From: Protoeuglena noctilucae
Taxonomy: Eukaryota
Direction: 5' to 3'
DNA length: 64,000 nt
NCBI GenBank assembly: GCA_958009085.1
Contig: OY253672.1
Location: 992,001-1,056,000, forward strand
Shown here in pieces: positions 9,714-36,417 of this stretch. The stretch's first letter is position 1; the number at the start of each line of letters is the position of its first letter. The notes under the pieces were generated by a model. That model was not told the origin of the DNA. It did no database searches and saw nothing but the letters and a program-made list of their open reading frames with translations. Both the position numbers and the translations under genes were made by a program.

Positions 9714-10162
9714 GGCCTACCGAGTGTCCCGACGGGGATGGAGCGCCGACCAGGGCGCAGCAGCGTGGAAAGGCGCGCAGGTTGACTCGCCAGTGTGCGA
9801 TACTGACAGCGCGGCCTCTGCGCGCCGCAACGACTCCTGCGCGGCGACGACATCCGCGGCCGTATTCCACGCTTTCATAGGGAGATCGAGCGCCTGTGCT
9901 TTTACGTTAGACCTAGGGTGCGCGTCGTTGTGACTCCCGGCCTTGCCGCAAATGGCCTCGCTAGTGACTAGCTTGCTCCCACCAAACTAATCTCTAGGTC
10001 GCGCGGACCTCGCATCCCCGGCCTTGACGCCACTTGGCGAGCGCCCCTCGCGCAAGCCTGGGCCGTCCCGGCCGTAGCGGCGCCTCCTGCGTGCCTCATT
10101 TGCTGCAATAGCGCGACAGAGGAGGTTCTTGGGCCTTGGGAGGTGGAGGAGGGGCCGGAGCC

Positions 10163-13100
10163 ATGGGGACGTTCCGCGTGGCCCGATGGGCGCTGGCCGT
10201 GTCCGCGGCGTTGTTCGCGGTCGCTGCCGGTGTTCATGCCGCGCCGACCGTCACCCCCTCGACGTGCACCATCACGTACCAGGAGACGAGCACCACCTCG
10301 GCGACCACCGTGGCGCTCGGGAGCGGGACTTGCGGGTCCATGAACATCGTTCCCGACGCAAATTACTACGTGACGCAAATCACGGTCGCCATCACGACCA
10401 GCGCGCAGTCCTACGACACCCTGAGCGTGGACCTCACTCAATGTGAGTGACGCTGCGGCGCTGGGGGGCGCGCAGAGCTCTCAGACTTGCGCAAACGCGA
10501 TCTCTTGGCGCCGACTGTGTGCGCGGCGATGCCTGGCTGGGCCCCGCCGCTGTGCGCGCTGCTGCACAACCGCGCCATGCATGTGGAGGCCTCGAGGCGC
10601 CCCGCGCGCCCTCCGGCGGCCCGCGAACTAACTCGGCGTTCCCGTCTGTTCCTCACGCAGACACGGGCTTGGCGAGCACGTATAGTTCAAACACCCTGAC
10701 GATAAAGAACTCGAGCAACACTGCTTCGGCGACGTATCCCCTGGCCCTCAACTCGTCCACGCCCACCAACATCCTCAACGCCGTGGCGTTTGGCGATCCT
10801 GCCAGCAACTACAACCCGAGCCCGCTGAACCGGACCCTCACCGTCACCGTCACGACGTGCAGCATCGCGACCGCCACGGCAGGGGCCGCGTGCGACAATG
10901 GCGCGAGCCCCACCCTGGCGACGTCGACAGCCTCCACCGTCACGGTGAAGGTGACCGGCCGTCCAACATAACTCAGCGCCTCTGCCGAAGATGACCTCCC
11001 CCGGCAGCCCCACAAGCGCGTCTTGTCGCCCTGTGCGCAGATGTCGTTGTACAACAGCCCTCCCAACATCAGCCTCGACTGCCATGGGGGGAACGACACG
11101 GGAACCGGAGGCGACGATCCCGCTCGGTGCGGGGCGCCGACAAAGTACATGGAGAGCCCCAACACGGGCAACCTGGCCCTCTTCCCGTCGACGGTGCGTG
11201 CACCTGCAGACCTGCAGTGCTGAGGGAGATGCTCTGCCGTCCTAGCCTGGCATGTCCTAACTTTCTGCGACCTACCTGGCTCTCGTGCAGGCGAACAAGC
11301 CCACGGTGGATGACTACCGGACAGGCAACAGCTTCACGACGACGACGGACGAGAACATGCTCATCGTGGCGGCCGAGATCTACGTGACCGTGGGGTCGGT
11401 CACGGATCCCACGGCGAGCACCGGGGTGGTGGGCGATGCGGGGGACATCCTCTCCCTGAGCAGCACCGGCACGAGCGACGCGACGGGGGCGGGCATCGCG
11501 GTTGCCACGTATGTCACCCCGACGGCCACGACGGCCGGGAAGCTGGCGCTGTCGGGCAACGTCAACACCGCCACGGCGCAGAGCTCGGCGCTCAACTACG
11601 CCGCGGTGCTGTTTGAGGTCATCTACAGCAACAGCTCGTCCAACGCGAGTGACCAGTACCGCATCATATGGTTCCGGGTGAAGGACGCCGGCAACGTGGA
11701 CGCGAGCGGCAACCTCGTGGGTGACGGGAAGTGGAGCGACTTTGCCAAGTTCTACGTTGGCTTCCAGCGGTACAACACGGCCCCCATCTACGCCACCGTG
11801 CCCACGGCGGTGACGTTCACGGAGAACAACGCGAATCCGTACGGGGTGCACAACGGCCAGGCCCTTCTGTTCACCAGCACGAGCCAGGCGAGGACTGCGG
11901 GGCTGGGGAGGCATGACGCAGTCGCCCTTACCATGGTTTACCATGGCGCGTGGGGTGACCTGTGCCCATCCCCTCCCCTTTCCCCTTCCGCAGAGCTTGG
12001 CGCTGTCGGACACGGATTCGACCTACATGCTGAGCTCCACCGTCACCATCTCGGCGAACTACGACTCGACACAGGACTCGCTCGCGCTCTGCGACGCCTC
12101 CACGGGCTGCTCCGCCCTCCCCACGAGCATCACCTCGACGTGGGACGCGACGCACGGCACGCTCACCATCTCGCGCGCCACCGGGGCCTGCAACGTCAAC
12201 ACCGACACCACCTGCATCACTGTGGTGAGTCGCGGGTGCCCTGCGCCTGCGAGCCATGCCTTGCGGTTGCTATGCCATGCGAAGTGCCTGCTCAGCTGCT
12301 CGCAAACGCTCCCGGCGCGTCGTCTCCTCGCAGGCCGACATGCAGGCCGCGCTGCGTGCCGTGGTGTACCGCAACCAGCCGACAGGGCTGGACAACCCGT
12401 CTGGGAGCCCCCGCACGGTCACGGTGACGACGACCGACTTTGACCCCAACACGCTGGCAAACATGGTGGTGCCGACCAACTCGGGGACCAGCACGGTCAC
12501 GAACGGGACGGGGACGGCTAGCAACCCCAAGACGACCACTGCGTCCTCCGTGACGGTCACGGTGGTGGCGGTGGACGACCCGCCCGTGCCCACCTTCCCC
12601 AAGCTCGACGTGGTTTTCGTGGGCAAGTACACGGACGTGGTCCCGGCGGCCGACGCCGGCACCTTCACCGTGACGGACCCCGACAACACGACGCTGGCCC
12701 AGGCGTCCATCCAGATCGACACGAGCACGTGCGACACCACCACGGCGTCCGTCGCCCAGGTGGACACGCTGACGCTCTCCGGCACGTGGGCGGCCGGCGA
12801 CGTGGTGGGCGTGACGGTGAACGGCACCAACGTGCCCTACACGGTCGTCAGCAACGACCTCACCGCCAACGGCGACGGCACGGGCGGGACGGCCACGGCG
12901 ACCCAGGCGGCCACCAACATCGCCGCCAAGGTCAAGGCGGCCGTGGCGGCCAACACGAGCATCGCCAACGCCGTGACGGTGGGCAACAGCGCCGCAACCG
13001 TGACCTTCACGGCCAAGACGGCCGGCACGCCCTTCACGTCGGCCGTGTCGGCATACGACGCTAAGACGCCGCTCGTGAGCGTGTCGACCACGACGGCCAA

Positions 13101-16100
13101 CGCCTACCAGACGTCCCAGGTGTCGTCGGTGACCATCGGGGGCACCCCGGCGGCGGGGAACGTGGTGTCGGCCACGGTCGCCGGCACCGCGGTGTCGTAC
13201 ACGCTCGTCAGCGGGGACACGACTGCGACCGCCGCGACGGGCCTGGCGGCGGCCATCACCACCAACGCGACGACGTCCGCGGTTGTGACGGCCGTCACCA
13301 GCGGCAGCGTCGTCTACCTGACGGCCAAGACGTTCGGCGGCTCCTTCACCATCTCGGCCACGCAGACGGGCACGGGGGCGACGGCCACGGCGGCCATGCC
13401 GACGGCGGGCGTGGCCACGGCGATCGCCCAGGTGTCGACGGCCATCGTCTACGGCTCCTGGGAGGTGGGCGACGCCGTGACGGTCAACGTCAACACCTAC
13501 ACAGTCACCTACACGGTCACCAGCAACGACTTGACCGTCAGCGGCACTGGCACGGGCGGGACGGCCACGGACAGCCAGGCGGCCACCAACATCACCGCCA
13601 AGGTGGTCGCGGCCATCAACGCCAACGCGAGCGTCTCCCCCACGGTGCTCGCCACGCAGCAGGCGGGCACGGGGACGTTCACGGTGGCGGCCAAGACGGC
13701 CGGCGTCCCCTTCACGCTAACGGTGTACCCGACGCCCCGGCAGAGCGCGTCGCTGGTGACGACCACGTGGGGCGGGCTCGAGGACCAGCTGGCGATCCTG
13801 AGCAGCAACGTGCACAACTTCAGCCACTGCGTCGACTCGACGAACGCCATCATCGTGCCGGCGGCCGGCACGACGTGCGCGGCGGCCGGCGGCACTGAGA
13901 CGACCGACTGGGCCAAGGTCGTGGTCCCCACGTACGTGGCGCGGGCCTCGAACAGCGCCAACAACTGCGCGCTCACCCTCGTGGGCCAGACGAGCATCGA
14001 GAACTACAAGCGCATCATCCTGGCGGCGCGCCTCACGGTCAACAACTCCAAGACCACCACCGACACGTCCAACACGTACGCGGCGAGCTCGGGCAGCGGC
14101 ATCTCGATGCGCTACCTGTACACGGTGCTCAACGACGGCTCGGTGTCGACGTCGTCCACCGACTCCAAGCGGACCTACTGGGCCTCGAGCTTCCTGGGGA
14201 CGCCCACCGTGAGCTCCACAACCCCGTCGGCCGTGTCCACGACGGGCGGGCTCGTGACCGTCACTGGCACCAACTTCGGGCCCGTGGGCCCCTACGACGT
14301 CAACACGGGCGCGTCGTGCAGCCCTTACGACTCCAGCAACCGCCGCATCGCCACGTGCCTCTTCCCGGAGATCATCGGGGACTCGACGCAGGGGTGCCCC
14401 GCCGAGCCCTGCACGAGCGTCAAGGGCAACATCGTCTCCAAGGTCTACATTGGCGGCAACGAGTGCACGGGCGCCAAGGTTGTCTCGACCACGTCGCTCA
14501 CATGCACGGCGCCGGCGGGCAACGGGACGGGCATCGGCATCTGGGTCGTCACGTCCCAGTCGTCGTCCACCGCCAGCATGCTCAAGACCGGGACGGCCGC
14601 CAACGTGTTCAACTACAGCGGCCCGACTGTGGTGGGCATCGTGGCCCCCGTCAAGACGTGCGGGCCCAACTGCACCTCCAACGTGCTCACCATCCTCGGG
14701 ACCAACTTCGGCGCCCCGGGGACCACGACCGTCTCCTCCAGCGGCGGCGGCTTCGTCAAGATCACCTTCACGTACGACGCCAGCAACCCCGTCGCGTGCA
14801 CCAACGCCGCCGTGATCGACACCAAGGCCCGCGACCCGACGTGCACCACGTGTCCCTCCAACACGAGCCTCGACGGCACTCAGTACGAGGCAATCACGTG
14901 CACCCCACCAGCCGGCGTGGGGTCGGGCCACGCGATGCAGGTGCAGGTGCAAGGGCAGGCCTCGAGCGCCAGCAACACGTTCTTCAGCTACATCGCCCCG
15001 AGCATCACGAGCCAGGCCACCGTGTCCTTCATCCCCGTCAACCTGCTTACGGTGACGGGAGACAACTTCGGGCCCGCGTGCGGGGGCACCGGGACGGCGT
15101 GCATCACGAGTGGGACGGGGGTCAAGCTGCAGTCGCTGGTGATCTCCGACCCGTCGAGCACCACGACCGTCAACTGCACCACCAGCTTCCAGGTCGTGAG
15201 CGACACCCAGATCGTGTGCAAGCCGCCATCGATGCAGACCACCGTTGCAGCGGGCGTCTTCGGGTCTTCGGACACCACCAAGACGTACAACCTGACGGTG
15301 AACGCCGGGAACCAGACCAACACGGACGGCGCGAACAAGTTCAAGTACCTCGCGCCCAGCATCACGGCGATCACGGCCTACTGCAGCGCGGCGGCTGGCT
15401 GCACGACGCCGGCCGCGACCCTCAACTACAACGGAGACGACTTCCAGATCACCGGGACTAACCTGGGCATCACGACGTCAACCGTGGTGGTCTACTTCGG
15501 GACCTACGCCATGCCCGGCGGCACGGGGTACTCGGTTCCCACAGGGGGCCAGTCGGTGGCGGTGGCGACCAACGACACGACCATCAAGGGCTACGCGCCC
15601 GACTACATCACCACGGGCAACACCTTCACGCCCAACGTGTACGTGACGGTGGACAGCATCGCCAGCAACACCCTCAACCTCGCCTCCAACCTGTACCAGG
15701 GCCCTGCGCTGAGCAGCACCGTGGTGTACGGCGACCAGTTCGGCTACGGCATCAACGGCTACGTGGCGTCGTCCGACGTCACGTCCAGCTCGATACAGTC
15801 GACGGACGTGACGCACATCCAGGCGGACGGCTCTTGGATCACCATCACGGGGCAGAACTTTGCCCCCAAGTACGGTTTCACCCCGCGGCCGTTCAACACG
15901 GGTGAGAAGGTGACCATCAACGGCGTCGACGTCACGTTCAGCAACTCGGCCACGATGACGTACATCTACGACGCCTCGACCATCTACATCCGCCACTCGA
16001 CTGCCATTGACAGCACGGGGGCTGTGACCCCGCAGTCGGGGACGGGCCTACCCCTGGCCGTGACGATCAACGGCCAGGTCACGGCGACGGTGAAAACCTT

Positions 16101-19100
16101 CACCTTCCTCGGGCCCTACATCTCCCAGAAGGTCACCACCGGGTCGGCCGTGTACACGGAGGGCGGCCCCATCACAATCACGGGCAAGCGCATCGGCCCG
16201 ACGGGGTCCACGTACTTCAACGCCAGCACGTACACCAGCGCAGGCATCTGGCTGTGCCTCAGCTCGGACTGCACCAGCAAGGTGGCGTGCACGGGCGCCA
16301 CGGTGACGACTGTGGACTCCGTGGTGACGTGCACGCTGGACCCGACGGCAAGTGGGAGCAGCCCGCAGTTCTACGCGTTCGGCAACGAGCTCACGGGCTG
16401 GGCCGGAGCCGTGACAGGCTCGCTCGCCGCGGCCGTGAACGGGCGCATAAAGATGGTGGTCGCGTACACGGGCGACGACGTCACGGCGTCCACCACCAAC
16501 ACGGCCACGACCAACAACGGCCACGGGTTCGCGCTCGAGTCCGCGACGGCGTCCGGGACGGGCAAGTTCACGGTGTCCGCGCCCGTCATCACCTCCATCT
16601 CGCCCAGCACGGGCCTCTACACGGACGGCCGCACGACGGCGGGGTCCAACGTCATCACCATCACCGGGCACGACTTCGGCGGGGGCAATGGGACGGCCAT
16701 CACGGCCGCCAACGCCTCGCAGTTATTCGTGCGCGACGTGACGATCAACGGCAAGACGTGCCAAAACATCACGGTGGTGACGGGGAGCGCGAACAGCTAC
16801 AAGCTGACGGCGGCGGGCGACCCCGCCATCATCACGTGCCAGCCGGTGGCCGACATCGGCTCCAACAAGGCCGTCAAGGTCGTGGTGGGCAATCCCGCGG
16901 ACCAGACGACCTGGCAGTCCAGCAACGTCGACAAGACGGTGTCGTTCGGCACGCCCATCGTGACGGACGTGTTTGGCGCGGACGGTTCGAGCCCCAACCG
17001 CACGGTGCCTGCGGCCGTCCCCACCTCGCCAGGCTACAACGTGGTGACTATCCAGGGCATCAACTTCGGTGCCACCGGGTCCACGGTCCAGGTCATGTTC
17101 GACATGGACGGCAACGTGGCCACCACGGGGGACCAGGTCACGTGCGCGACGCCCACGACGGCCGGCGCCTGCGGGGGCAGCAACTGCGGTGTCACGGCGT
17201 GCGCCGTGTCGGACGCCAGCGGCAACTGCCTGGGCGACTACATCCGGTGCCAGTTCACGGCCCAGAACACGGGGTCGCTCGGCAGAGGGTTCCCACTGCG
17301 GATCATCTTCTGCGACGCCGACGGCAACAGCGCCTGCGACACGACCGCGGACCCCGCCGCCGGCGGGGCGACGGGGCTCGGGAGCCAGACGGGCACCAAC
17401 TACTGGCTGACGACGGTGCGCAGCACGGGCGCCTCCAACCTGGGCACGGTGAGCGGGCAGACGGTGCTGAACGTGACGCTGGCCTTCACGCCGCCGGCCA
17501 TCACTGGCATCACGGTGGCAGCGGCCACGGACGGATGGGTGGGGACCTCCACGCTGACCATCACGGGGACCAACTTCGGGAGCCTGACGACCGGCAACCC
17601 CTCCAACACGCAAGTGGCCGTGCAGATCCTGCACACCACCGAGAAGCCCACGTGCACGTCGGTCGCGGCGTGCGGGACCACGTCCGGGAGCACGTGCATC
17701 ACGTGCAGCTACACGTGCGAGGGACAGGCGTCGTCCCCGCTGCCCTGCGTGCCCAACACCGACCGCATCGTCGCCATCAAGGTGGCCGGGCAGATGTCCA
17801 ACTACTATGTTTGGAAGGGCGGCGTCCTCGGCCCGCTGATCAAGAGCCAGGCCAACGGGGGCGTGTCTGCGCCGTACATCTTCGCCAGCACGGTGTACCC
17901 GATCACCATCAACGGCTACCGGTTCGGGAGCACCAGCACGGACGCGGCCGTGACGCTCGACTCAATCCGCTACTGCGACAAGACGACCTTCACCAGCTGC
18001 TCTACCGACAACACGAGCGGCACAATGGCCAGCGGCAACTGGGTCTCTATGACGACGACCGCCCGCGGCGGGACGGCGCCGAACCTGTACGTGACGGGCC
18101 AGACCCCTGCGCACAGCCAGACGGTGGGGGACGGCTCGGACGCGCTGACGGTCAACGTGCGGTTCACCTACTCGGCCACGCTGTGCAACTCGAGCTGCAC
18201 CACGTCCAACCCCAACAACACAACCACCCCTTGCGCGGGCGTGCAGGGCATGACGGACTGGACCAGCACCACCGACTGGAACACCATTGTGTGCACCAGC
18301 GCGGCATCGGGGGCGACGACGCAGGTCGCCACCACCTACTCGACGAACTCGACCCCGAGCGCGCAGGACAACGGGATGGCGGCGCTCGAGTACAAGGCGC
18401 CGACCTTCTACACGTCAGTGGACTCGGCGCTGGGCAGCACGGTCCGCGTGGCATCGCAGACGCAGGACGGGGCCAACTTCATCACGGCTCACACCACGTC
18501 CGGCACCTATACAACGACGTCTCAGGCGATTACGCTCATGGGCGAGGGCTTCGGCAACGTCGTGAACAACACTTACATCAACGGCGTCAGGATTGATACA
18601 GAGGCCGCGACAGGAACGTACTTTGGGCCCACAACGTATTCCGCCACCGTCAGCACCAGCAACTCGTTCGTCATCACGCTCCCGGATGGCATCGGCATCA
18701 CGTTGCTGACCGTCCAATTCAGCTGCGATGCCGCCTCGCAGCTCGGGCAGCCGCTCCCCAACACGTCGACGAGCGGGTCTGCGACGCAGAGCACGCAGAC
18801 CGCAGCCGCTGCAAGTCAGGCGCAAGTGGACACGATCGTGCTGTCCGGGACTTACGAGACCGGGGACACCGTGAAAGTCACGGTCAACGGGACCACGGTC
18901 TCCTACTTGGTGGTGGTGGCCGACTTCCAATACAGCGGAGCTGCGGCCACGAACGCCCAGGTGCTGGGCAACATCGCCACCAACTTGGCCGCGGCCCTCG
19001 CGGGTAACGCCACGGTAAGCGCCGCGGTGACGGCGACCGCCAACTCGTCGACGGCGACGGTGACGCTCACGTCCACGTGCGGGGCGTCGTGCACGGCGTC

Positions 19101-22100
19101 GACGGGCTTCACGACAACGGCCACGGTGGTACGCACTGCCATCACGGCCAGCGACTACGCCTCCCTGACCTGCCGCGGCACGACGTCCACGCTCAAGATC
19201 CTCCGCACCGCGCCGGCAATCTCGAGCAGTCTGCAGACGGTCGGTGGCGCGGGGGGCACCCTGACCTTTGCCGGGACAGACTTCACGACGCCCGCGCTCG
19301 TGTCCTCCACCTCCCTGGTCACGGCGGCGCTGTACAGCGGCACGAGCCTGTACCAGAGCCTCACGATCACCTCCATCACGTACGACTCCACCAGCAACAC
19401 CTTCAGCATGGTGACGACGGTGCCGGCCGGCACTGGCACCGGGTACGACGTGCACGTGACGGTGCAGCTTTGCAGCACCTGCACGGCCATCGTCGGCATC
19501 TCGTCGGGCAAGGTCTCTTTCACGCTGCCCCAGATCACCAACATCACCTCGCTGCCCACGCTGTCGACCCAGACGACCGTGTCGTACACGTACACGTCGG
19601 GCACGGGCACGGCCACCGACACCCTGACGGGCGCCTGGATCACCATCCCTGGGACCAACTTCGGGCCCAACCTGACGGTGGCGCAGGCGGCCCAGCGGCA
19701 GCTGACGGTCAGCTTCACGTACAACGGCGCGCAGACGACCTGCCGGAGCCCCTTCATCACCAACTCGCAGGTCGACACCACCAGCGGGATTCAGTCATCC
19801 GACATCGTGTGCTCCATGGCCTGCCTGACGGGCGAGTCCAACTGCACCGGCACGGTCGGTTCCGGGGGCAACTACGTGCCGTCCTTCTCCATCAACGGGT
19901 CCGCCTGGGCAGTCAACACCAACAGCAAGGTGTTCAGCTACGCTGCACCCACTATCACGACCACAAACTCCGTCAACATCTGGGGCACGGGCGTGGTGAC
20001 CATCACAGGGACCAACTTCGGCCCGACCGACAGCTCCACGGTGTACATGCCCGCCGGCGGGGCGCGTGGCCTCACGGTGGCCTTCTCGAGCCCTGCTCTG
20101 GGCCTCGCCAGCACCGCGTGCATCAGCCCGACGGTGACGGGCCACGCCACCATCACGTGCACGCCACCCAACCTGAGCGGCCAGCTGTCCCTGACCAACA
20201 CCACGGTGACGGTGACCGTGACGGTGGGCCCCTCGGGCAACACGCAGTCTGTCACGGCCAACTACACGTTCTCCCCGCCCGTCGTCTCGACCGTCGGCCA
20301 GCCGTCTGTCTTCGGCGGCGTCATCACCATCGTGGGCACTGACTTCAGCCAGACCGACCAGAACGGGTCGCTGGGAGGCCTGTACATCAGCGGCTTGGCC
20401 GTGTCCAACCTGACGCCCTACAACGCCCAGGTGACGACCACGAAGATCGTCCTCACGTTCCCCTCGTCCTCCGGGGGCACCATCTACAGCAACACGCCCA
20501 TCGACGTGGTGGTGGGGGGCGTCAAGAGCACGATCGTGAACGCGTCGACGGCGCCCGTGGCGGGGACGGTGGACCCCCGGTACCTCAACTCGGTGGGCCC
20601 CACGGTCGTGGCGACGACGACGGTCCCGACGTCCGGCGGCGTCGTGGTCATCGCGGGCACGGGCTTCCCGCCCGTGACGGGCACCGTGGTGGGCACGGGC
20701 AGCGACTCCGTGACGGTGGGGACGTTCAAGTGCACGGACGCTATGTCTATCGACAACACCAACGCGCACTGGCAGACGAGCCTGAGCCAGTACAACCAGA
20801 TGACGTGCACGCTGCCGGCGGGCACCGGCAAGAACAAGCCCGTGACGATGATCTTCTACACCAAGACGTCCTCCAACGACGCGTCCTTCCAGGGCTTCTC
20901 ATACGCTGCCCCCACGGTCACCAGCGCCGTCACCTCCTCCGGCAGCACCAGCCTGGTGCCCGGGAGCCCCATCACCCTCAACGGCACCAACTTCGGCACC
21001 GACGCGTCGCTGGTCCTCGTGACGGCGCAGCTGTGCAGCACCCCCAACACCCCGTCCAACTGCAGCACCAACCCCACGAGCACGTGCACCAATGTGACCG
21101 TCACGCAGACCACCGTCTCGTGCACGCTCCCCGTCTCCACCAACACGGTCGGCACCACCGTGGTGCTCAACGTCACGGTCGACAGCGTCGCCATGACCAC
21201 CCCGTACGGCATCACCATCGCCCAGCCCACCATCACGAGCATCCTCAGCGGCGGCGCCGCCGTGCCGCCCACGGGCGGCGTCGTTACCATCAGCGGCTCC
21301 AACTTCGGCCCCCTCTGCGGCGGCACCAACCCCAGCTGTTCGTCGACCATCGCTGCCGTCACGTTCGGCGCCAACGCGGTGGCGTGCACCAGCCCGTCGG
21401 TGACGACGGCGGACTCCACGGGCAACGGTACCGTCATCACGTTGACCCTCCCGGCCGCTTCGACGGCGGGGACCACCCCCTTCGCCGCAGCCGACCTCGG
21501 CGCGGGCGGCATGTCGGTGTACGTCAAGGTGGGCCCGTCGGCGACCACTGCCGTCTCCTCGGCCGCCTACTCCTTCTCGTTCGCCGCCCCGACGGTCACC
21601 GGCATCACCTCCTCCGGCGGCGGCAGCCTCCCCGGGACCACCACGCCCAGCGCGTACAAGGGCCAGACCATCACCGTCACGGGCACCAACTTCGGCACGG
21701 CCACCGAGGGCCCCGTAATCTCCATCCACCACGCGCTGGACTCCACGGCCATCTTCAACGTGCAGTCGTCGGACATCGTGTCCGTCTCCAACACCCAGAT
21801 CGTGTTTAAGGCGCCCTCGGGGTACGGCTACCTGGCCTACATGCAGATCAACATCTCCAGCCGCGAGGCGACCTACACGGCCCTGAGCCTGACGACCACC
21901 CGGCCGCCGTTCCGGTTTGCCACGCCCGCCGTCCTGCCGGCCGCCCAGCAGCTGGTAAACGGCGTGAGCGTCTTCACCACGCCGACGAGCATCCCGCTGG
22001 CCTCCAACAACTCGCGCGGCAACACCAACGGCCTGGTCACGATCGTGGGCACGGGCTTCGGCCCCGTCTCGGCCGCGGGCGCCAACGGCATCCAGGTGGT

Positions 22101-25100
22101 GCTGCACAAGTCACGGGCCACCGCCACGGGCACGGTGGACAACGTGCGGGCGTGCACGAACCCTGCGGTCACGACCGAGGACACGGTCTTGGTGTGCGAG
22201 CTGAGCACGAACGGGGTCGGGTCGGGCTGGGACGTGTACGTGGGCGTGGGCAGCAAGACGTACAGCCCGTGCGTGGTGCAGATCAACGTCGGCTCCACGC
22301 CCTTTTCCTTCTCCGGCGCCGACTGCCAGGTCAACGGGTTCACGTACAGCGCCACCGCCACCTTCACGCCCATCGCCAACAACACCGTCGGGGTCGGGGC
22401 ATGGGCCTTTGCGCCGCCGGTCGTGTCGAGCGTGCGGTTCTGCCAGGTCGGCGACACGTACTGCAAGAACGCGGACTACTCGCAGCAGGCGCAGCCCGCG
22501 GTGGTGTCGACCGGGTCAGTGACGAGCGTGGCCCAGGTCAGCACGGCGACCTTCTCGGGGACCTGGGAGACGAACGATGTGGCGACCCTCACGATCGGGA
22601 CCAAGGCGGTGAGCTACACGGTCGTGGCGGCCGACCTGACGGTGAACGGCAGCGCCGGGACCGCCGCGCAGGTGCAGGCCAACGTGGCTGCCAAGCTGGC
22701 CGCGGCCATCACGAGCGACGCCACGGCTGGCGCGTTGGTCACGGCCGTCGCCGCCAGCGGGGTGATCCGGCTGACAGCCAAGACGGGCAACTTGAGCATC
22801 ACCATCGCTCAGAGCGTGACCAACGGGGGCACGGACAACATGCAGGCCATCGCGGTGGCCACGATCATCCCGGCCGCCGGCACGTCGACCAACAAGCTCT
22901 ACATCACGGGGACGAACTTCGGCACGGCGTCTGAGACCATCACGGCCCTGTCCAATACCAGTGTCACGATCAACAACGCGGTCCAGGTGTGGCTGGTGGG
23001 CCCGGGCGACGGCACGTGCACGCGCAACAACGTGGCGCTGCCGGGCGTGGAGTGCAAGACGGCGACGCTGGTGACCGCCCAGACGGCGATCGAGTGCGTC
23101 GTGCCGGCCAACATCGGCGTCGGCATCAACGTGCTGGTGGAGGCCGGCGGGCAGGTCGGCACGACCCCGACCTCGCCCACGACCGCGCAGCAAGTGAGCT
23201 TCCAGGCGCCCGACATCACGTCCGTGACGTCGTCCGCCACCCAGGGCAGCACGATCACCGTCACGGGCACCGGCTTCGCGAACCTCATCCCCGACACGAC
23301 CGTCGACAGCACGTCCTGCTACGCGTCGTGGTTCACGGCCAACGCGGTGCAGGTGCTCTACAAGCAGAGCGACACTGCCCAGTACGGCACGTCGGCCAGC
23401 TGCACCTCGTTCGCGGTGGCCACGGTCAACAGTGTGGTGCAGGTCACGTGCACGGCGCCCAAGGGCACCGGCACCAACCACTCCCTGCAGATGGTGGTGC
23501 GCGGCGTCACGTTCACGGCCAACTCGGGCCAGGCGCAGTCCTTCTCGCCCTTCAACTACCTCGCCCCGACCGTCACGAGCGTGACGGCGCCCCCCGTCCT
23601 GGGCGGGACCATCACGATCAATGGCACCAACTTCGGCAACGTGCTGAGCTTCGTCCAGGTCCAGATCTACCCCCGCAGCGAGCTGAGCAAGACCCTCGCG
23701 CAGCGCACGGCCCTCGCCGCGACGGACGGCTGGTGCTCCAACACGGGTACCAACGCCAGCCTGGCGGTCCCCACCGCGGCCGCCGACACGGTGAACAAGA
23801 CGGGCCAGCACTTCCAGCTCACGTGCACGGTGCCGTCCGGGATCGGCTACAACTTCTCCGTCAAGGTCACGGTCGACTCCCAGGACTCCGGCAACACCGG
23901 GGACGGCCTGCTGGCGTACCTGCCGCCGACCATCGCGCCCACCACGACGCTCTCGACCGTCAGCGGCACCACGTACGCCGTCAACCCGCGCGTGGGCAAC
24001 CTGGTCGGCCTGACGACCATCACCATCGCCGGCACCAACTTTGGCACCCCCGACCTGCTGAGCAACCCCCCCTCGTACCTCTCCACGGGCGCCATCCAGG
24101 TGTGGTTCTCTACCGACACCGCCGCCACGGCCAACGGCGCCAGCAAGGCCGCGGCCACGTCCTTCCAGGCCGCCCAGTCCTCCGTGGTCATCTACCGCCC
24201 CGACTCGGCAAGCGACATCTTCTACATAATCGCCGCTGTCCCCGTGGGCGCCGGCAAGAACGTCAACGTGTTCGTGAGGGCCGACGGGCAGTTCTCCGCC
24301 GCGAGCAACCGCGCCCTGTACGACTTCCCGCCCCCCGTGGTGACCTCCACCAACGTGCCCTCGGCCGCCGGCGGGGCCGACACGAGCGGGGACGGCAAGG
24401 GCCACATCCTGACCATCACGGGCCAGAACTTCGGCCCGGCCAACACCCCCGTGACCTCCGTCATGGTCGGCGGGTACACGTGCAGCAGCCCGGTCGTGGT
24501 GAGCAGCACGAGCATCACGTGCGCCATGCCGGCCGGCAACGGCTCCCAGTACGTCGTGCAGGTCACCATCCTCGGGTCCACGTCGGACCCCGGGACGTGG
24601 CGCATGCGCTTCCGGTGCCCCACCGTCTCGGCGGTGTCGACCACGCTCACGGGCGCCGTGGCGGCCGCGCCCGCCTGCAACGGCACCGACTGCGCCCCGG
24701 GCCGCACGGGGCAGAAGGTGGTGGTGCAGGCGAAGGAGCTGGGCCCGACGACGGACATCTACAAGATGAAGGTCAAGTTCCTCCAGCCGGGCTCCACGGA
24801 CGCGAGCCTGGCCTACTGGACGGCCGTGGGCACGTCCGACGCGACGAGCGACCTCGCCTTCGCGCCCAGCTTCCAGCAGCCGGACAACCAGGGCGTCTAC
24901 ACGCTCCTCGTCACCGTGCCCGTCGGCTACGGCAGCGGCCTGCCGGTCGTGGTCGAGGTGAACGGCCAGGACTCCCTGGGCATGTGCGGTGACACGCCCG
25001 CCCGGTCCATCAGCGGCATTGACTCGTCCCTCAAGTTCTCGTACCCCAAGCCCGTCATCCTCGCGGCGGACTCGGTCGGCACCGAGGGCGGCGTCATCAC

Positions 25101-27730
25101 CGTCCACGGGGAGAACTTCGGCCCAGCCGGGACGCAGGACCTGGAGGTGGACCAGGTGTCGTACGCCGGCATCAACATCACGTGCGCCAGCGCGCAGGTG
25201 CTGCCCTCGTACGACAACGTGCGCATCACGTGCACCATGGGCCCCGGCCTCGGCAGCAACAACCAGCTGTACGTCAAGCGTGGGCCCAGCGCGGGCCCCG
25301 GTGGCAACCAGCAGGTCACGTCGGACGCCTTCACGGGCTTCACGTACGCCGCGCCCGCCATCTCCCAGGGCGGGATCGTGTGCTACCCCGCCACCGCCAG
25401 CAACGGCCTGCCCGACAAGTCAACGTCCTCGAGCTCTTGCTCGGCCGGCGACTGGGTGTACATCACGGGGACCAACTTCGGCAACAACCCGGCCCAGACG
25501 GTGCTGGCCATCTTCGACCCGGGCCTGGTGGACAGCAAGACGAACCAGCCCACGATCCTGGCCACGGCCTCGCCCCCCAGCAACTGCAGCACGGCCACGG
25601 GCGACGCGTGCACGGCGACGCTGGTCATGTTCAAGATGCCGCCGCTGTCGGGCCAGAAGCGGTCGGTGCAGGTGCAGCTGCTGGCCAAGAACCCCGCGTA
25701 CAAGTCCTACGCCATCAGCTCGCCCTTCAACGCCACGCCCGTCTTCTTCTCGTACAAGCCGCCCACGGTCGATGGGGCCAACCAGGTCCCCACGTCGGGG
25801 GGCACGGTGACCATCACGGGGAGCCACTTCGGCGTCGTGAACGACGCGGTGGGCGTGTCGATCGGCACCCTGACGTGCGCCAACGCCAAGGTGACGGCGT
25901 CGGACGCCACCACGGGAGACGGCACGGGCATCCAGTGCACGCTGGGCGCGGGAGTCGGCGGCAGCATGGACGTGGTCGTGACGGTGTGGCCCTCGCAGCC
26001 GACCGCGCAGCAGACGGGCTTCCACAAGGCCCTGTTCAGCTACATCGCGCCCACGCTCACCAGCGTCGCCGGCCCCGGCACCGGCGCCTCGACCGGGGCT
26101 GCCCAGAAGAGCGCCACGGGCACGTCCGGGCAGACGCTGACGCTCACGGGCACCAACCTGGGCCTCAACGCCTCGGACATCACGGTGCAGTTCCTCCGGG
26201 CCGACCAGTCGGTCGCGGGCACGTGCGGCAGCGTGCCGGTGGTCAAGGACCACACGCAGATCACGTGCGTGACGCCCAACATCCAGGGCCTCAATCTGGC
26301 CATCGTGGCCGTCGTGGGGGGGCAGCCCAGCCCCACGTCCGGCGCCCCGCAGTTCACGTTCGACCTGGCCGGGTGCAAGAACCCCGCCGCAGAGAACTAC
26401 AACCCCAACGCCACGTCGGACAACGGCACGTGCGTCATCATCGGCTGCACCGACCCCAACGCCCTCAACTACACGCCCCCGCCCCCCAACGGCACGGTCA
26501 AGGACGGTGAGTGGGCTGAGTGGGATCGGACGTCCCAAGGCGCGGCGCACCGTAGCCGTGGAGTCGGTGTGTGCTCCCTGCTGCCTGCCACATATACAGC
26601 CACCCTCTGCCTGCGCCCGCAGATCCCAAGGGCTCGGTGTGCATCATGCCGCCCGTCACGGTCGAGATGCGACGCGACTTAGACTACAACCAGGTAAGGA
26701 CCTCTCCCTTCTTCCCACTCATGCGCCGCCCATGCCTGACGCATCGCAGTCAGGCTCCAGGGCCAGGAAAGACCCCCATCAGTCACCGCAAAACGTCCCT
26801 CCGCCCTCGCCCCCACAGTTCCTTGCCAACCAGTCCTTCTGGATCAACCAGCAGATCCAGAGCCTGGCCACCAACATGAACATCTCCACGAGCCGCATCA
26901 CGTTCATCTCGGCGCGCCAGGGCTCGACCATCTTCAACTGCCAGATCGCCGACGTGGCGCCCAAGGACCGCTCTCCGGGGGAGCCCTCGGCGGCCCAGGC
27001 GGCCCAGACGCTCAACACCGCCATCAAGGATGGTTCGTTCCAGGACGTGAGTGGCCACTGGAGAATGGCACGCACCTTCATGCGTTGCCAGGGGTTGCAT
27101 GCACAGGACCCGGGGGGCCACGTTGTGCGCCACACAAAGCCTCTGCTCTACGACACAGATCGCGACCCCCACGTTCGTTTCCTCAACCGCCCTTGGTCCG
27201 CTCGCCTCCCGCAGAACCCCCAGATGCCGCTGCTGAGCATCACGTTCGTGACGAACGGCAACAGCCAGGTGTCGGTCCCGAGCGACCAGACGGTGCAGAC
27301 GGCCCGGGGCGACAAGCGCATCTCCAAGTACAACTACGTGGCGCTGGCGCTGGGCGGCCTCGCGCTCCTTGTCCTCGCCATCTTCTCCAAACGCATCCTC
27401 AAGTTCCTCTGCCGCCGTCGCTCCGCCAAGTCCGAGGCCGGCCCTTGGCCCATCGTCGGTCGGCCCCGCTCGCGCACCAAGACGCGGGTGTACCCGGACG
27501 ACATCGAGACGGCCAAGGACGAGGACATCAAGGCCCTCGCCGAGCCTCGGAAGGAGCAGAAGGTCCTGGTGGCTCCGGCCGATGCCGCCCAGGGGGTCAA
27601 GGGCGGCGCCGACGCGGTGGCGGGACCCGAGGCACGCGCCGTGGTCGTCGCCAACCCGCCGCGCCCCCCGCAGCAGCAGCAGCAGCGCGCCGGCGGCAAC
27701 GTGTACGCCATGGGCCCGATGCTGCTCTGA
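10163..27730 (+). CDS. Giant (~5,512 aa) type-I membrane glycoprotein with ~30 IPT/TIG domains; 9 exons (10163-10442, 10661-10950, 11041-11193, 11291-11887, 11994-12224, 12334-26506, 26623-26693, 26819-27046, 27215-27730)
   Basis: Signal peptide MGTFRVARWALAVSAALFAVAAGVHA. Exon phases join consistently. 4808-aa ORF with ~30 repeats of P.ITS....GG.ITITG.NFG..C......I.C..P.G.G. TM YVALALGGLALLVLAIFS followed by basic KRILKFLCRRR. Confidence 0.9.
12751..13725 (+). repeat. Three tandem ~100-aa 'AQV.T..L.G....GD....TV.G..V.YT' modules inside the giant gene (further copies at ~18817-19130 and ~22528-22860)
   Basis: Visible protein repeat. Copies 1 and 3 also share long near-identical DNA (cagcaacgac..ggcacgggcgggacggccacgg..ccaggcggccaccaacatc). 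Confidence 0.85.
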
Positions 27731-28186
27731 GGCGGCAACGTGCACCCCGCCTGGCAGGCGCGGGTGCTGGCGTCTCTGCGCGCCGAGCATCGCACGCAGA
27801 GTCGTGACACGTGACTTGTAACTCGATGATAGTCCCAGTTACTGTGGCTACCTTACCACACGCACTTCCCATGCTTTGTTGGCAGGCGCCGCGCCGCCTT
27901 GCACGTGACTCTTATTTGGCAGCAGACCTCGATGTGGCCGCAAGATGGGGCTGGGGGATGTCATGAAGCTATTGACGGACTAGGAATCGCGACCCACGCG
28001 GACGTGGCGATGCGCTCGCCTGTCGCGTGGCCTAGCGTTGCGTTGCTGTTAGCCTTTCTAACGCCGCGGGGGCCCGGGAGGTGGCAGAGCGTTTCGGGGG
28101 CAGCGGCTGGGTTCGCGGAAAGAGGTCTTTGAATGATAATATGTCACACTGTGATGCCACGAGACAGGAAATCACATAAGAAATGA

Positions 28187-30552: not shown

Positions 30553-33500
30553 ATGGCGCAGCCAAACAGGCCCTTGGACGTCGTGTATGGTGAGGATGGC
30601 GATGCGTTGGAGGTCTGCGCCCGTGGGAAAGGCCGGTATGCGGGGGCAGAAGCAGTTCACCTCGTGCGCCCCTGACATGGGATTTGCGGCGAGTCTGTGG
30701 CCGTGCTGGTGCCAACTTCACGCCTTCATGTGGAATAAGAAACAATGCTTCACGCGCTCGCACGGCATGGGCTGGGGAGGCCGTGCCATGCCGGGACGCT
30801 GCGACACAGCTCGTGGCATGCCCGGGCCCCTCTGACCCGGCCAGTCACGCTGGACGCCCCGGTCGCCTCGCTTCTCACGCAGACACGACCATGGCGCTGT
30901 CCAGCATGAAGGACCATTTCCGGGAGGCGTCCCGCGCGACGGGATTCAAGGTCACGCCCCAGCCCATCTTCACCAACTTCTTCTCCGAGCTCTCCCACCA
31001 TCCGGCGCGGCAGGCGGCCATCAAACCGGCCATCCGACTACCTCCGCACATCAACCCCTACGCGCGGCCACCGCAGCCAGAGTCTCGGGTGGCGCGCACG
31101 CTCCGCTCGATGACGCGGCAGGTCGAGGGGGCGCCAAACCTGCTGTACTACACGCGCCCCCTCATGGCGCACGACACGGACTCGGTGGGTCCCGTGAAGC
31201 TCCACCAGGACGTCCGCCCCGTGGCCCAGCCCATCGACGCCAGCGCCGCGGCCAAGCAGGGGCGGCCTGACCCTTCGGCCTTTGCCCCCGAGGGCCACCG
31301 CACCGTGGGGACCCAGTCCGCGTTCCGGGAGTCCGAGATGCAGACGACGCCATGGGAGCCCGACTACGTGCTCCCCGAGAACCCCGCCCCCAAGCAGCGC
31401 GCGCTGATGGAGAAGCACCATTCGGACGTGCCAGAGATCCTCTACCTGCAGCACCTCCATTTCGGGGAGGGTCTCCCGGCCGGGGCGCAGGAGATCATGC
31501 AGGTCAAGAAGCTCTGCGAGAAGCGAGCGTTTGAGGCCTCGCTCCCGCCCATCAGCGGTGAGCCGCGAGCGCCGGCGCAGCTAGCACGTCGCGACGATGA
31601 CCCCGCCCGCCAACCGCGCCTTGCCGCCCGCCCCGCAGACGCCGCCCGCCTGCCCGAGCGGCAGCGCATGCTCGAGGAGTGGGAGACGAAGGAGTGGGCC
31701 GAGCGTGAGCAGGAAATTGAGGGTTTGCAGGAGGAGCGCCTGGCCATCATGGAGGCAGCCCTGGAGGTGAGAAGCCAGCCGACGATGCCACGGGTTGTCA
31801 GGGTCTCTGCGCATTCCGCGGCCGACCCAGGCCACCTGGAAAGAGCGCACACCATGGTGGTTTGCCCTGTGCGCCCGCAGCGCCGGGAGGCGGCTCAGGA
31901 CGAGGGTCGCGAGGCCCGGCTGGAGACGATGCGCGAGACGCGGATGCAGACCAAGTCGCAGTCGTTCGCCGCCATCCAGCGCCGGCGCATGCGCACCATG
32001 CGGCAGCTGACGTCACTGAGGGAGAAGAGCGTTCCCAAGGGCACCAGGCCTTCCATCATCGGTGACTGCTCCCCAGCAACTGAGCGGCGCACTTGCCATT
32101 GCCGCCGGCGCCGTGTCCACTAGCTGAGGACCGTTTGCCTTTGTCGGCCCCTGCAGATGAGTACGCCGACTACGGGTCCCAGATCTACGCGCCCGTGCAG
32201 CGCCAAGGGCGCTTCCCCGAGACGCAGCCGCGTGGCAAAGAGATCGATCCGTCGCCGTTCGAGCCGGCGTCGCTCCGGCAGCTGGACGACCTGCACGAGA
32301 CGCTTGGCCCGTCGCGCCTGCACGCCACCGTCAAGGTCCCACCCTCCCGGGAGTCCCTGACGATGACGGCGCGGCAGCGGCGCCTGAACGCCTCCGCGCG
32401 CGACGTGGAGTACATCGCGGACCTGCTGGAGGGGAGCAAGTCGGCGGGGGGGCGCGGGTTCGGGGCCTGCTGGCCCGCCCCGCTCCAGTCGGGGGGGCCC
32501 AAGGGCACGGGAACGGGGAAGCGCAAGGCTGGGCGTGCGATGCAGCGCCCGGGCACGCCGGAGGCGCCGCGGGAGGCTCCGGACGCGCACCTGCACCGGG
32601 CGGCGACGGTGCTCCAGAAGCTGCTGCGGGGCCGGGCGGCGCAGAACCAGATGCTAGCGATGAGGGAGCAGCAGCTGGAGCTGGTGCGGGAGCTGCGCGT
32701 GGCGGACGCGATGGCGAGCGGGGCCGAGGCGGAGTCCCTGCAGCAGCGGCACGAGCGGCTGCGGGCCGTCGACGCCCAGCTGGGCCAGGCGGTCGCAGAG
32801 CTGCTCCAGACGCTGGCGGGCGGCGACGGCCCCGAGCGCGTGCAGCGCCTCCGCGAGGCGCACCTGGCCATGCGCCGGCAGGCCCTGGCGGACCTCGGGG
32901 CAGGGCACCGGGACGCCGCAGCCCTGGACATCCAGCAGGCCGTGCGGGCGTTCGTGGACCGCCGCCGCGCCTACCAGCGGCGCGCCATGGAGACGCAGAG
33001 CCACGAGGGCGCGCTGCAGCGGCAGCTGGAGCGCCTCCGCGCGTCCATGGTGAGCAGGATGGGCTGCCGTGGTGCTTTTGTGCTTTTGAGGTGCTGAGGG
33101 GTCTGCCATGATGCCTGTGCGACTGGTCCGGCGCCCCTGGCCCTACGCAGGAGCAGGAGGTGTCGAGCGTGTCGGAGGAGGAGGCGCAGATGCCAGAAAG
33201 CGCCATGCGGAGGGAGGCACCGGGGCTGGAGGGTTCAGCGTCCTCCGCAGCAGCGGCCGCCCCGCAAGCGCGCGACGGGTCGGGCCCGGAGATGGCGTCG
33301 CCGGTGCCGACCTCGCGGCCTCTCACCGGACAAGTGCTGGGTCGCAACATTGGCACCGCGGCTTCCAAGGGGCACGCCGTGGAGCAGCTGCTGCTGGACC
33401 TCGTGTCAGACATCGCAGGCGAGTGACATTTCCACTGTGTTCGCATCGCCGGCCGTCTACAGCTGCCATGCTGCGGCAGTCTAAGCACTGCGCGGTGGTC

Positions 33501-34538: not shown

Positions 34539-36417
34539 ATGGCTTCCCCCGGCGCGGGGGAGCTCCTGGACCCCCTGCTCGAGAGCCTGGGGCAGGGGGA
34601 GCACTTCCGGGCCGAATGTCGCAGTCTCCTGGACAAGATATGTGCCTTGGTGCCCAGCGCGGGGGCCCTCATGCAGGGCCTGGGCCCCAGCGCCAACGAG
34701 CCTGCGGAGGACGAGTTCCGCAGGCTCCAATGCGCCACCGCAATCTGGGCGCTGAAAAGGTTAACGCCACAGCCATCGGTATCTCCCACGGGCGACCTGC
34801 CCCTCGGCCGCGTCGCGGAGGCCTGGTGAGGCGTTTTGGGCGGGACGCGCGGTGACGCCGCCCTGGCCGTCCGTTTCTTCCAGCCGCCGCGCAGTAGTGT
34901 TCCGATGACTGCCTGACGCCTTCCCGCACCGCTTCGCGTGAGCCCGGCGCCCCGGGTCAGCGGGCCAACCCTTTCCCGCCCTCGCAGTGACCTGACCTAC
35001 GCGAGCTTCTTTAGCCACGGCCGGGACATTATACAGCGCTGCGAGTCTCTCTTCTCGGACATCTTTGGTCCGAAATCGGCGCGGGTGCTCCAGGAGCGCC
35101 TGCAGACCACTGTCGAGCAGCTGCTTTACACCGTGGCCTTCAAGCGGCTCTACGCGTCCAAGCTCGCCGTCATCTTCCGCGACGCCTCCAGGTATGTCGC
35201 GTGAAGCTACCATGACTCAGAATCCGTGGGCACATGCGCACCTTGTCGAGGCCTCGCGCGTCGCCCGCCCCCGCAGGGTTGGCTACCTCGGCTGGGTCCT
35301 CTTCCTCGCCATCCGCGCGCGTGTGCCGTCGCAGACGCAGAGCGACCAGGTGAGGCGTTGCGGTGGGCTTGGGCCACGCGCGCGCCCCTTTCGGGCGACG
35401 CCTGCGCGACGCGGCCTCTCCCGCCTCGCACACAGCACTTTGTCGCCACCCTCATCACCTGCTGCACGAACATCCTCGTCGCCAGCGCGCCCCTGTCGCT
35501 CCTCCGCGAACCCAACGAATGGCTCAAGAGCCGGGACGAGGAGGGCCGCCGGGACACCCTGGCCAGCCTCGGCGAGCTCTTCAAGCTGGGCTCGGAGGTG
35601 ACGCCGAGACGCCCAGACCGCGACAGCGTCAGCCGCGAAACCCTCCCCGCACTGACGCACGCGATCCCTTTCGTCCTCCCAGAGCCTCCCGTCCCTGCGG
35701 GTGGCCATGCAGCAGATCGACCAGGCGGCCTCGGCGGTCCTGGCGTCGTGCCACGCCGCGACGGCGGCACCCGCGGCGCCCGCGGGCCGCGACATGGCAT
35801 GTTCGTGCTCTTACCGCCCCCGTCTCATCGCGGAGGACGGCTCCTGCGAGGAGGCCACGCAGGCAGCCTCAGCGGCGTACGAGGAGCGGTACGCGGCTTA
35901 TGGGGAGGTGGACGAGCGGCTGATCTGGTCCGACGAGGGCTGCGCCGCGGTCGGCGACATGCGCACCGTGACGGCGACGCCCCGGAAGCCCCCCGCGGTT
36001 GGCACGCCGCGCAAGGGCTCCGGGGCGCCCGCACCTCCCAGCGCGCTGCTCACGCCCATGGCCCCGCGCTCGGCAGCGCCCCCGCCGCAGACGCCCATCT
36101 CCGGGGCGCTGCACGGCTCGCAGTGGCTGGCGGCCATGGCTGCCGNNNNNNNNNNNNNNNNNNNNNNNNNNNNNNNNNNNNNNNNNNNNNNNNNNNNNNN
36201 NNNNNNNNNNNNNNNNNNNNNNNNNNNNNNNNNNNNNNNNNNNNNNNNNNNNNNNNNNNNNNNNNNNNNNNNNNNNNNNNNNNNNNNNNNNNNNNNNNNN
36301 NNNNNNNNNNNNNNNNNNNNNNNNNNNNNNNNNNNNNNNNNNNNNAGGGAGGCCGTGGCCTTTCCGCGCCTGTGGCGCCAGTGGCAAAGCAGGCGCGGAC
36401 TGGCTAGCGTAGGGTAG
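34539..36417 (+). CDS. RBR: Retinoblastoma-related protein (RBR/MAT3-like): N-terminal domain and start of pocket A, interrupted by assembly gap
   Basis: LGWVLFLAIR, YEERYAAYGEVDERLIW, S/TP CDK sites (TPRK x2), PQTPISGALHGSQWL. Confidence 0.8.
36146..36345. other. Assembly gap (200 N)
   Basis: Run of N. Confidence 1.

Follow-up and report, generated by a model that had tools for sequence, protein, structure and literature searches.

A gene on contig OY253672.1 of Protoeuglena noctilucae (assembly GCA_958009085.1) encodes a giant membrane protein of 5,512 amino acids (aa), in which a multi-domain head and a stalk of some 30 IPT/TIG domains stand on a base of predicted SEA-like fold next to the membrane. 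The gene occupies positions 10163..27730 of the forward strand of the 64,000-nucleotide (nt) stretch analysed (contig positions 992,001 to 1,056,000), which is called the window throughout and to which all coordinates refer. It is transcribed and spliced as modelled, and its product is a type I single-pass membrane protein. It is unusual for a eukaryotic protein in having a domain of the phage sheath or flagellar insert type, and for one of a green alga in having a SEA-like base. By analogy with characterised proteins of similar build, the product might be a sheddable, N-glycosylated filament tethered to the membrane as part of the surface or flagellar coat, a reading to which we give slightly less than even weight.

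A transcribed and spliced giant gene

The gene model comprises nine exons, with the start codon at 10163 and the stop codon at 27728-27730, exactly the limits proposed in the first-pass annotation of this DNA, and has a coding sequence of 16,539 nt. Seven of its introns are of the GT-AG type and one is of the GC-AG type, and they measure 90-218 nt apiece. The forward strand holds a single open frame of 4,817 codons (12229-26682), and the giant exon 6 (12334-26506, 14,173 nt) encodes aa 518-5241. The GC content of the window ranges from 59 to 72% (2-kb windows), and opposite the giant exon there are antisense open frames of up to 967 aa (12292-26643, reverse strand), which have no match to the TIG units or to the AQV domain described below. 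Such long antisense frames are commonly seen in coding DNA that is rich in GC and periodic in composition. Rfam gave no matches across the window.

Contigs of four sequencing runs, at an identity of at least 95%, were placed on positions 10000-27950. The part from 18000 to 27900 was complete in marine metagenome runs and in DNA runs of a cultured alga, here organism A, and was covered to 25-92% by marine metatranscriptome runs from two studies; moreover, a 53-kb DNA contig of organism A covers the whole stretch with no differences. Metatranscriptome contigs of two studies carry spliced joints at, or equivalent to, seven of the eight modelled introns, and it is on these joints that the transcription and splicing of the gene rest. 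The joint of intron 1 (10442/10661) is found in an RNA contig of run X13, that of intron 3 (11193/11291) in X7, that of intron 5 (12224/12334) in X7 and X13, and X7 and X8 both carry the joints of introns 6, 7 and 8. Intron 4 (11888-11993), the one of the GC-AG type, is also spliced out in X7 and X13, which belong to different studies. No bridging RNA contig was found among the placed runs for intron 2 (10951-11040), and therefore the donor of exon 2 may be either 10950 or the alternative 10944. One X7 contig of 9,153 nt spans 19814-27950 in spliced form. The first-pass annotation had named the lack of a transcript across the exons as fatal to its proposal; spliced RNA contigs of the gene do exist.

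The sequences are nearly identical across the culture and several ocean samples, with at least 99% identity in 15 of 15 contigs of X13 and in 24 of 26 contigs of X7. Two odd contig joints were also seen, 12881/13679 in X4 and 15094/24501 in X8, with one side of only 21-22 nt. They are probably artefacts induced by repeats or derived from another locus, and not splicing.

Architecture of the protein

Two hydrophobic segments stand out by hydropathy, an N-terminal signal peptide of about 26 residues (aa 1-26, 10163-10240) and one transmembrane (TM) helix (aa 5382-5399, 27335..27388), which is the top hydropathy window of the protein. The helix is followed by KRILKFLCRRR, in agreement with the positive-inside rule, and then by a cytoplasmic tail of 113 aa, which with the stop codon occupies 27389..27730. 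The composition is dominated by threonine (16.5%), alanine (11.3%), serine (10.2%), valine (9.8%) and glycine (9.6%). There are 115 cysteines and 78 N-x-S/T sequons, the latter distributed evenly along the chain. The signal peptide, the single TM helix, a tail of about 110 aa and the abundance of sequons had all been read from the letters before, and on each of these points the first reading was right.

The stalk extends over 14203..26421 (aa 1141-5213). The Pfam family TIG (PF01833) was matched in seven stretches with an E-value of 2.1e-46, the score of 156.2 bits exceeding the gathering threshold of 20.9. Of 29 occurrences of the motif x-I-T-G-x-N-F-G, 28 served as seeds for a profile of our own, which recovered 28 strong units (E 1e-12 to 1e-26; envelopes of about 110-172 aa) and two weak ones. 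The earlier estimate of about 30 IPT/TIG domains was accurate. A conserved pair of cysteines, 12-35 residues apart, is present in 18 of the 28 strong units. Against the Protein Data Bank (PDB) the 28-unit profile matched the IPT chains of plexin-A1 and plexin-A4 and an entry named 'IPT/TIG domain-containing protein', and a phmmer search with the 4,101-aa array against the PDB sequences gave no matches. An atlas lookup with a piece of the array returned generic eukaryotic TIG clusters only (0.83) and serves as a lead. As one TIG unit measures about 4 nm, some 30 units would make a stalk of roughly 120 nm if extended. The extension is uncertain because FMG1B of Chlamydomonas, a protein of comparable design, is a twisted chain forming scales in the passages of its account considered here (10.1101/2024.09.28.615573).

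The second component is a discrete alpha/beta domain of about 110 aa, here called AQV, which is present in five copies. Three stand in tandem in the head (12745..13755; aa 655-768, 775-872 and 879-991), and two interrupt the TIG array at 18811..19161 (aa 2677-2793, E 8.2e-38) and 22522..22854 (aa 3914-4024, E 2.3e-42), both E-values being those of a five-copy profile of our own. The first-pass annotation had spoken of four adhesin-like repeats; if the AQV copies were meant, their number is five instead of four, and two of them lie inside the TIG array.

The non-TIG start of exon 6 (623 aa) was searched against 1.84 billion representative sequences and gave 118 relatives at E<=1e-3, 25 at E<=1e-10 and six at E<=1e-30. 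The best stretch lay wholly in the repeat region for 116 of the 118, and the other two began upstream (query positions 19 and 57) and extended into the repeats. The five-copy profile matched 115 of 122 sequences. Among the top 25 relatives, the Pfam content was of the FlgE hook type in five, FliD in one, flagellin-like in one, RTX in two and Cadherin_5 in one; 13 had no family and two had scattered weak matches only. The named relatives include a Rhodospirillaceae metagenome-assembled genome (MAG), a Methylophilaceae MAG, Thalassospira lucentensis and a JGI entry described as 'phage tail sheath gpL-like'. Another relative, P0059 (1,486 aa), starts with very similar AQV-type repeats and ends in a TM helix with a short basic tail. 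In none of the 118 relatives were TIG units or the N-terminal module of the head (described below) found, and because of this the combination of AQV with TIG appears special to this algal family.

An AlphaFold model of AQV copy 1, made from a 35-row alignment, had a mean predicted local distance difference test (pLDDT) value of 93.0 and a predicted template-modelling score (pTM) of 0.84. It was compared by VIA-align with 48,161 chains, of which nine reached Z>=8 and the fiftieth had Z 3.4. The best match was to residues 91-177 of the tail sheath of cyanophage A-1(L) (8kee_A, Z 11.7), with a root mean square deviation of 1.7 A over 85 residues and 29% identity, and Foldseek also found 8kee (E 1.1e-4). 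It was followed by the nozzle of P-SCSP1u (8i4m, Z 10.4), the tail of Klebsiella phage Kp7 (7y22, Z 9.2), the sheaths of phage Mu (9khy, Z 9.1) and PhiTE (9cb9, Z 8.8), modules of the lytic polysaccharide monooxygenases (LPMOs) CbpD (7sqx) and GbpA (8gul), both at Z 8.7, the fiberless tail complex of T7 (6r21, Z 8.6) and Pseudomonas aeruginosa FliC (4nx9, Z 8.3). Several FliD chains gave Z of about 4.6-6. At the sequence level, the family phrog_165 'tail sheath' was matched by 20 of the 35 alignment rows and, among the copies of the window, by copy 2 (E 1.1e-5), weakly by copies 1 (0.012) and 4 (0.31), and not by copies 3 and 5.

On the predicted fold as well as on sequence, AQV is thus a domain of the type found in the outer part of phage tail sheaths and in flagellar inserts, and it has fold and sequence in common with the outer domain of the sheath and with the inserts of FlgE, FliD and flagellin. 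Unlike its phage and bacterial relatives, it is part of a membrane protein that is eukaryotic, rich in TIG domains and encoded by a gene with introns. In the AQV alignment, NCBIfam matched only the flagellar parts of one member. The consensus LAAAINA...VTA resembles the flagellin hook IN motif (PF07196). This identity was rejected, as neither a copy from the window nor the 689-aa head piece matched PF07196 at E<=1; the family was also absent among 25 of the 49 families, those listed for the 35 members of the alignment.

The head, of about 1,100 aa, combines the three tandem AQV domains with three copies of an N-terminal module of about 100-130 aa, which has the pattern LSDxD...G-x-L-T-I...ALRxVxYxN...R-T-V-x-V-x-V-x-D. 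Module 1 (aa 67-160; independent E-value 9e-4 with the module profile) is encoded by exon 1 (10163-10442), which also holds the start codon and signal peptide, together with exon 2 (10661-10950). Exon 3 (11041-11193) encodes a Cys-containing segment. Module 2 (aa 306-374, 11483-11689) lies in exon 4 (11291-11887), at whose 3' end is the GC-AG intron, and module 3 (aa 436-573, 11873-12501) is spread over exons 4 to 6, its first half lying in exon 5 (11994-12224); its independent E-value of 8.5e-51 was obtained with its own copy in the seed. The modules had no Pfam match in a scan by exon pieces at E<=1. We take them to resemble modules of the cadherin-like or CSPG type in giant adhesins of bacteria. 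For exon 4, the atlas yielded a single weak cluster, a viral one (0.75), again a lead.

The membrane-proximal part begins with two Cys-bounded GCxxPxAxNY repeats at 26365..26505 (aa 5195-5241), present as previously noticed, and continues with the juxtamembrane SEA-like domain at 26623..27334, which is encoded by exons 7 (26623-26693) and 8 (26819-27046) and the start of exon 9 (27215-27730); the latter exon also encodes the TM helix, the tail and the stop codon. Two relatives introduced below, P0003 and P0004, have in common with the window protein the two GC repeats, the motifs C-x-[MY]-P-P...DLDY and R/K-x-G-S-[TV]-I-F, and a TM helix next to which one to three cysteines stand among basic residues. 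The last of these two motifs reads RQGSTIF in the window protein, RRGSVIF in P0003 and KKGSVIF in P0004. The tails of the window protein and P0003, the former with its Cys/basic cluster, have an aligned RVxP (RVYP and RVAP) and similar last ten residues (NVYAMGPMLL and NVYARGPLLL). We take the RVxP and the juxtamembrane Cys/basic cluster to be ciliary-targeting features of the kind present in fibrocystin and polycystin-2, and as short motifs they serve as a lead; a flagellar address is possible on these motifs and on the presence of a flagellar gene in the host.

The C-terminal profile was scored against longer proteins of 579-2000 aa, and the GC repeats, which make up 5-22% of the query, were matched in 30 of them. 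Thirteen of the 30 have the type IX secretion system (T9SS) tail PF18962, of the Bacteroidota type, and one Crocinitomicaceae MAG and one picozoan are among them. As these matches cover the GC repeats alone, they are silent on whether the SEA-like and TM module occurs in other proteins.

Since the SEA-like module of the window is split over three exons, the C-terminus of P0003 was modelled by AlphaFold2 instead, from an alignment (A2) whose six rows represent three proteins, four of the rows being fragments of the window protein. The model has the order beta-alpha-beta-beta-alpha-beta (strand 50-56, helix 60-82, strands 89-95 and 100-105, helix 120-132, strand 144-150), and G97-S98 lie in the turn between the hairpin strands 89-95 and 100-105. 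The top matches by VIA-align were Trop2 (Z 9.3), the SEA region of TMPRSS6 (8.9), the SEA domain of MUC16 (8.5 and 7.7), SorCS2 (8.5) and dystroglycan (8.0), and lower ones included the membrane-adjacent domains of IA-2, CDH23 and PCDH15 and also Gpr126. Foldseek gave matches only at E of about 1e-2, to generic ferredoxin folds, EpCAM/Trop2 and IA-2. As in MUC1, MUC16 and matriptase/TMPRSS6, a domain of ferredoxin-like fold would thus lie next to the membrane beneath a long glycosylated ectodomain, here with G-S-[VT]-I where strands beta2 and beta3 turn; known cleavage motifs of SEA domains are G/SVVV and G/SVIA. In contrast to the membrane mucins, the window protein has no mucin domain rich in proline, threonine and serine and no Pfam SEA match. 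A SEA-like fold is suggested by the model and the motif is present, and to this extent the SEA-like segment claimed in the first-pass annotation stands, although not as a SEA domain by sequence.

Relatives and genomic neighbourhood

A search for full-length relatives among proteins of 2,598-8,267 aa, in which 1,214 candidates were scored, found four, including the window product itself. The whole plan is shared by just two further lineages among them, those of P0003 and P0004, both known from marine records. P0003 and P0007 are ENA records of 5,744 and 5,756 aa. P0003 is colinear with aa 202-5512 of the window protein, its alignment beginning in exon 3 and including the tail end, with an identity of 36-42%, and it also has five AQV copies, some at other positions. 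Conservation is even along the chain and no hypervariable region was seen. P0004 stands for a cluster of eight members of about 3,745 aa, which have no AQV; it contains four copies of the head module, a TIG array in which Pfam marks 26 TIG stretches, and the C-terminal module, and it matches Ig_TgrO1, DUF7498 and the Calsyntenin C-terminal family weakly. The near-full-length members of this cluster are on contigs of 12.1-12.5 kb, which barely exceed the 11.2-kb open reading frame; these contigs are suggestive of transcript assemblies of an organism with lower GC content. The amoebozoan Protostelium nocturnum has a TIG giant of 5,777 aa with 24% identity, confined to the TIG part.

The family is small in the collections searched. 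No characterised full-length match was found in the sequence and PDB searches, nor was this architecture in an alga described in the literature searched, mostly outside subscription journals. To the extent of these searches the protein is, as first supposed, not a characterised algal protein.

Outside the gene, two of 24 long frames had Pfam matches. A CFAP91 frame lies 2.9 kb downstream at 30594-32120 on the forward strand (E 1.6e-32), and its named relatives are from Pedinophyceae sp. YPF-701 (38%), Myrmecia bisecta (37%) and Hariotina reticulata (34%); each is a green alga, and none of them is close. This flagellar gene and its relatives, three of three being chlorophytes, indicate that the host is a marine green alga with a flagellar gene, in keeping with the algal origin guessed from the letters. 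The other frame, at 36970-37758 on the reverse strand, is of the NAD-dependent epimerase/GDP-mannose 4,6-dehydratase type (E 1.9e-21), a nucleotide-sugar enzyme. Close to it there is a scaffold gap of 200 N at 36146-36345, and the GC content dips to 0.59 at 36-38 kb. A six-frame scan of the 64 kb found no second TIG or AQV gene.

Known systems and possible function

The repeats of FMG1B of Chlamydomonas are Ig-like, 34 in number and of about 110 aa with one disulfide each, and the protein forms an N-glycosylated outer ciliary coat which is anti-adhesive, its loss raising adhesion (10.1101/2024.09.28.615573). The passages of that account considered here name no known family for the repeats, describe an anchor made of a Cys-rich coiled domain, a disordered linker of about 100 aa and a multi-helix TM domain, and call the FMG1 family highly variable among green algae (10.1101/2024.09.28.615573). 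As far as these passages go, FMG1A, FMG1B and the window protein are all green-algal, giant (>4,000 aa) and membrane-anchored, with about 30-34 Ig-like repeats of about 110 aa, and the one conserved disulfide per repeat of FMG1B can be set beside the paired cysteines that 18 of the 28 strong TIG units have, a likeness of design by description. The window protein differs from FMG1B in its recognisable TIG repeats, its distinct head and its AQV inserts. The sequence searches of the PDB returned no chain of FMG1B, which says nothing against a relationship. Because this ciliary-coat work, as far as it was consulted, already describes a functionally analogous green-algal chain of Ig-like domains, the claim of an undescribed system was too strong.

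In the fibrocystin/PKHD1L1 family the IPT array is accompanied by G8, PbH1 and/or PA14 domains. None of these three was found here: Pfam gave TIG only on the 4,817-aa frame (E<=0.01) and nothing on the remaining exons, so that an identity with fibrocystin was ruled out. PKHD1L1 itself, of 4,243 aa, is an IPT-rich coat protein of stereocilia for which PbH1 is named as a feature (PMC10593026). Fibrocystin and PKHD1L1 are both large and of type I topology, carry many IPT/TIG domains and are located on cilia or stereocilia; the single-pass topology is also that of the window protein. The parts considered of the PKHD1L1 account mention no such head, AQV domain, GC repeat or SEA-like base, and the tail of PKHD1L1 has 8 aa against 113. 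Of the likeness to fibrocystin and PKHD1L1 suggested in the first-pass annotation, the TIG array and the TM helix thus hold, while the G8, PbH1 and PA14 domains are missing from the matches.

The coat filament is preferred because the two characterised proteins so built, FMG1B and PKHD1L1, are coats and not classical receptors in the passages seen of both accounts. An extended filament would stand out from the plasma membrane, or from that of the flagellum, by some 100 nm and would set the properties of the surface, giving protection and a regulated stickiness, while the modules of the head would be exposed at its tip for binding. The SEA-like module may allow the ectodomain to be cut into two non-covalently held chains and to be shed under force, and the conserved tail could handle sorting, possibly to the flagellum.

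Several points weigh against this coat filament. The model of the P0003 C-terminus has a pLDDT of only 53.7 overall, with 62-87 in the 10-residue blocks before the TM helix, and Z scores of 8-9 lie little above the background of 7-8 stated for the tool. Pfam SEA (PF01390) had no match at E<=1 either in the unsplit P0004 module or in the exon 8 and 9 pieces of the window, a weak test for the latter as its domain is divided among three exons, and the profile of the C-terminal module retrieved one chance-level row from the PDB sequences. Moreover, the GC repeats, the folded SEA-like domain, the single TM helix and the 113-aa tail differ from the anchor given for FMG1B in the passages considered, and a distinct head on a long stalk has an adhesin-like look too. 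Contig depth cannot rank expression. Glycosylation, cleavage, location and role of the coat filament are all predicted.

The main alternative, less probable than the coat, is an adhesin or recognition receptor, whose head would bind a mate, kin, a substrate or bacteria of the phycosphere and whose tail would convey signal or load into the cell, in the manner of the Tgr proteins of Dictyostelium, plexins and bacterial RTX adhesins. The head-on-stalk layout agrees with it, and so do the exposure of AQV relatives in bacterial RTX giants and flagellar proteins and the presence of the AQV fold in the chitin- and mucin-binding LPMOs GbpA and CbpD (Z 8.7); nevertheless, the Pfam scans found no known ligand-binding family, and the analogous FMG1 of Chlamydomonas lowers adhesion according to the passages considered. 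The conserved 113-aa tail with its RVxP and C-terminal motif would also suit a receptor. The Tgr proteins, much shorter than the window protein, likewise carry a TIG array on a single-pass membrane protein, and P0004 weakly matches Ig_TgrO1 and DUF7498. The window protein itself, however, has no Tgr-specific Pfam matches, no partner gene of the Tgr kind stands adjacent or elsewhere in the window, and no polymorphism was seen at identities of at least 95%. The near-identity across samples is unlike hyper-polymorphic recognition loci, alleles below 95% lying outside the comparison. With a single TIG gene in the window and near-identical sequences across samples, a polymorphic receptor pair like that of Tgr is not borne out.

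It is quite unlikely that the protein serves as a barrier or decoy against viruses and grazers, by which giant viruses or bacteria would be kept away from the membrane, or that viruses use it as their receptor. The size and glycosylation potential, the putatively sheddable SEA-like base and the prokaryote- and phage-type modules exposed at the tip would fit such a role, but the reading is purely architectural, and there is no marked sequence variation between samples. Finally, a chance frame in GC-rich DNA, a repeat mis-assembly or a pseudogene, which could be imagined from the many long spurious frames expected at 59-72% GC (antisense up to 967 aa) and from the two odd contig joints with their sides of 21-22 nt, is excluded by the 30 TIG units in the frame, the colinear orthologue over 5,300 residues, the organism A contig spanning the stretch with no differences and the spliced RNA at seven of eight introns.

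A bolder proposal, which we regard as improbable at present, is that the protein represents an unrecognised coat family of green algae, in which modules of prokaryote and phage type were grafted on a eukaryotic TIG stalk with a self-cleaving base of the SEA type. It is equally speculative that the grafted modules would be the tail-sheath/flagellar decoration domain, the T9SS-type GC repeats and the RTX-adhesin-like head modules, with the tail motifs directing the whole to the flagellum. If true, this would mean that domain acquisition between kingdoms has shaped the encounters of picoplankton with bacteria and viruses, and that autoproteolytic anchoring of the SEA type exists outside animals. 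If the SEA-like module does cleave itself, the mechanism would be older or more widespread than the mucins and proteases of animals.

Naked or thinly covered marine picoalgae face viruses, bacteria and grazers by their surface, and their surface proteins are almost all uncharacterised. This gene, expressed in the ocean, provides a candidate for the principal far-reaching component of their surface, and one that can be tested. By analogy with FMG1, as far as its account was consulted, the coat filament would add a marine lineage, differently anchored, to the folded-repeat mucin-like proteins of green algae, a class proposed only recently. Moreover, a domain otherwise found on phage tails and bacterial flagella occurs here within a eukaryotic membrane protein.

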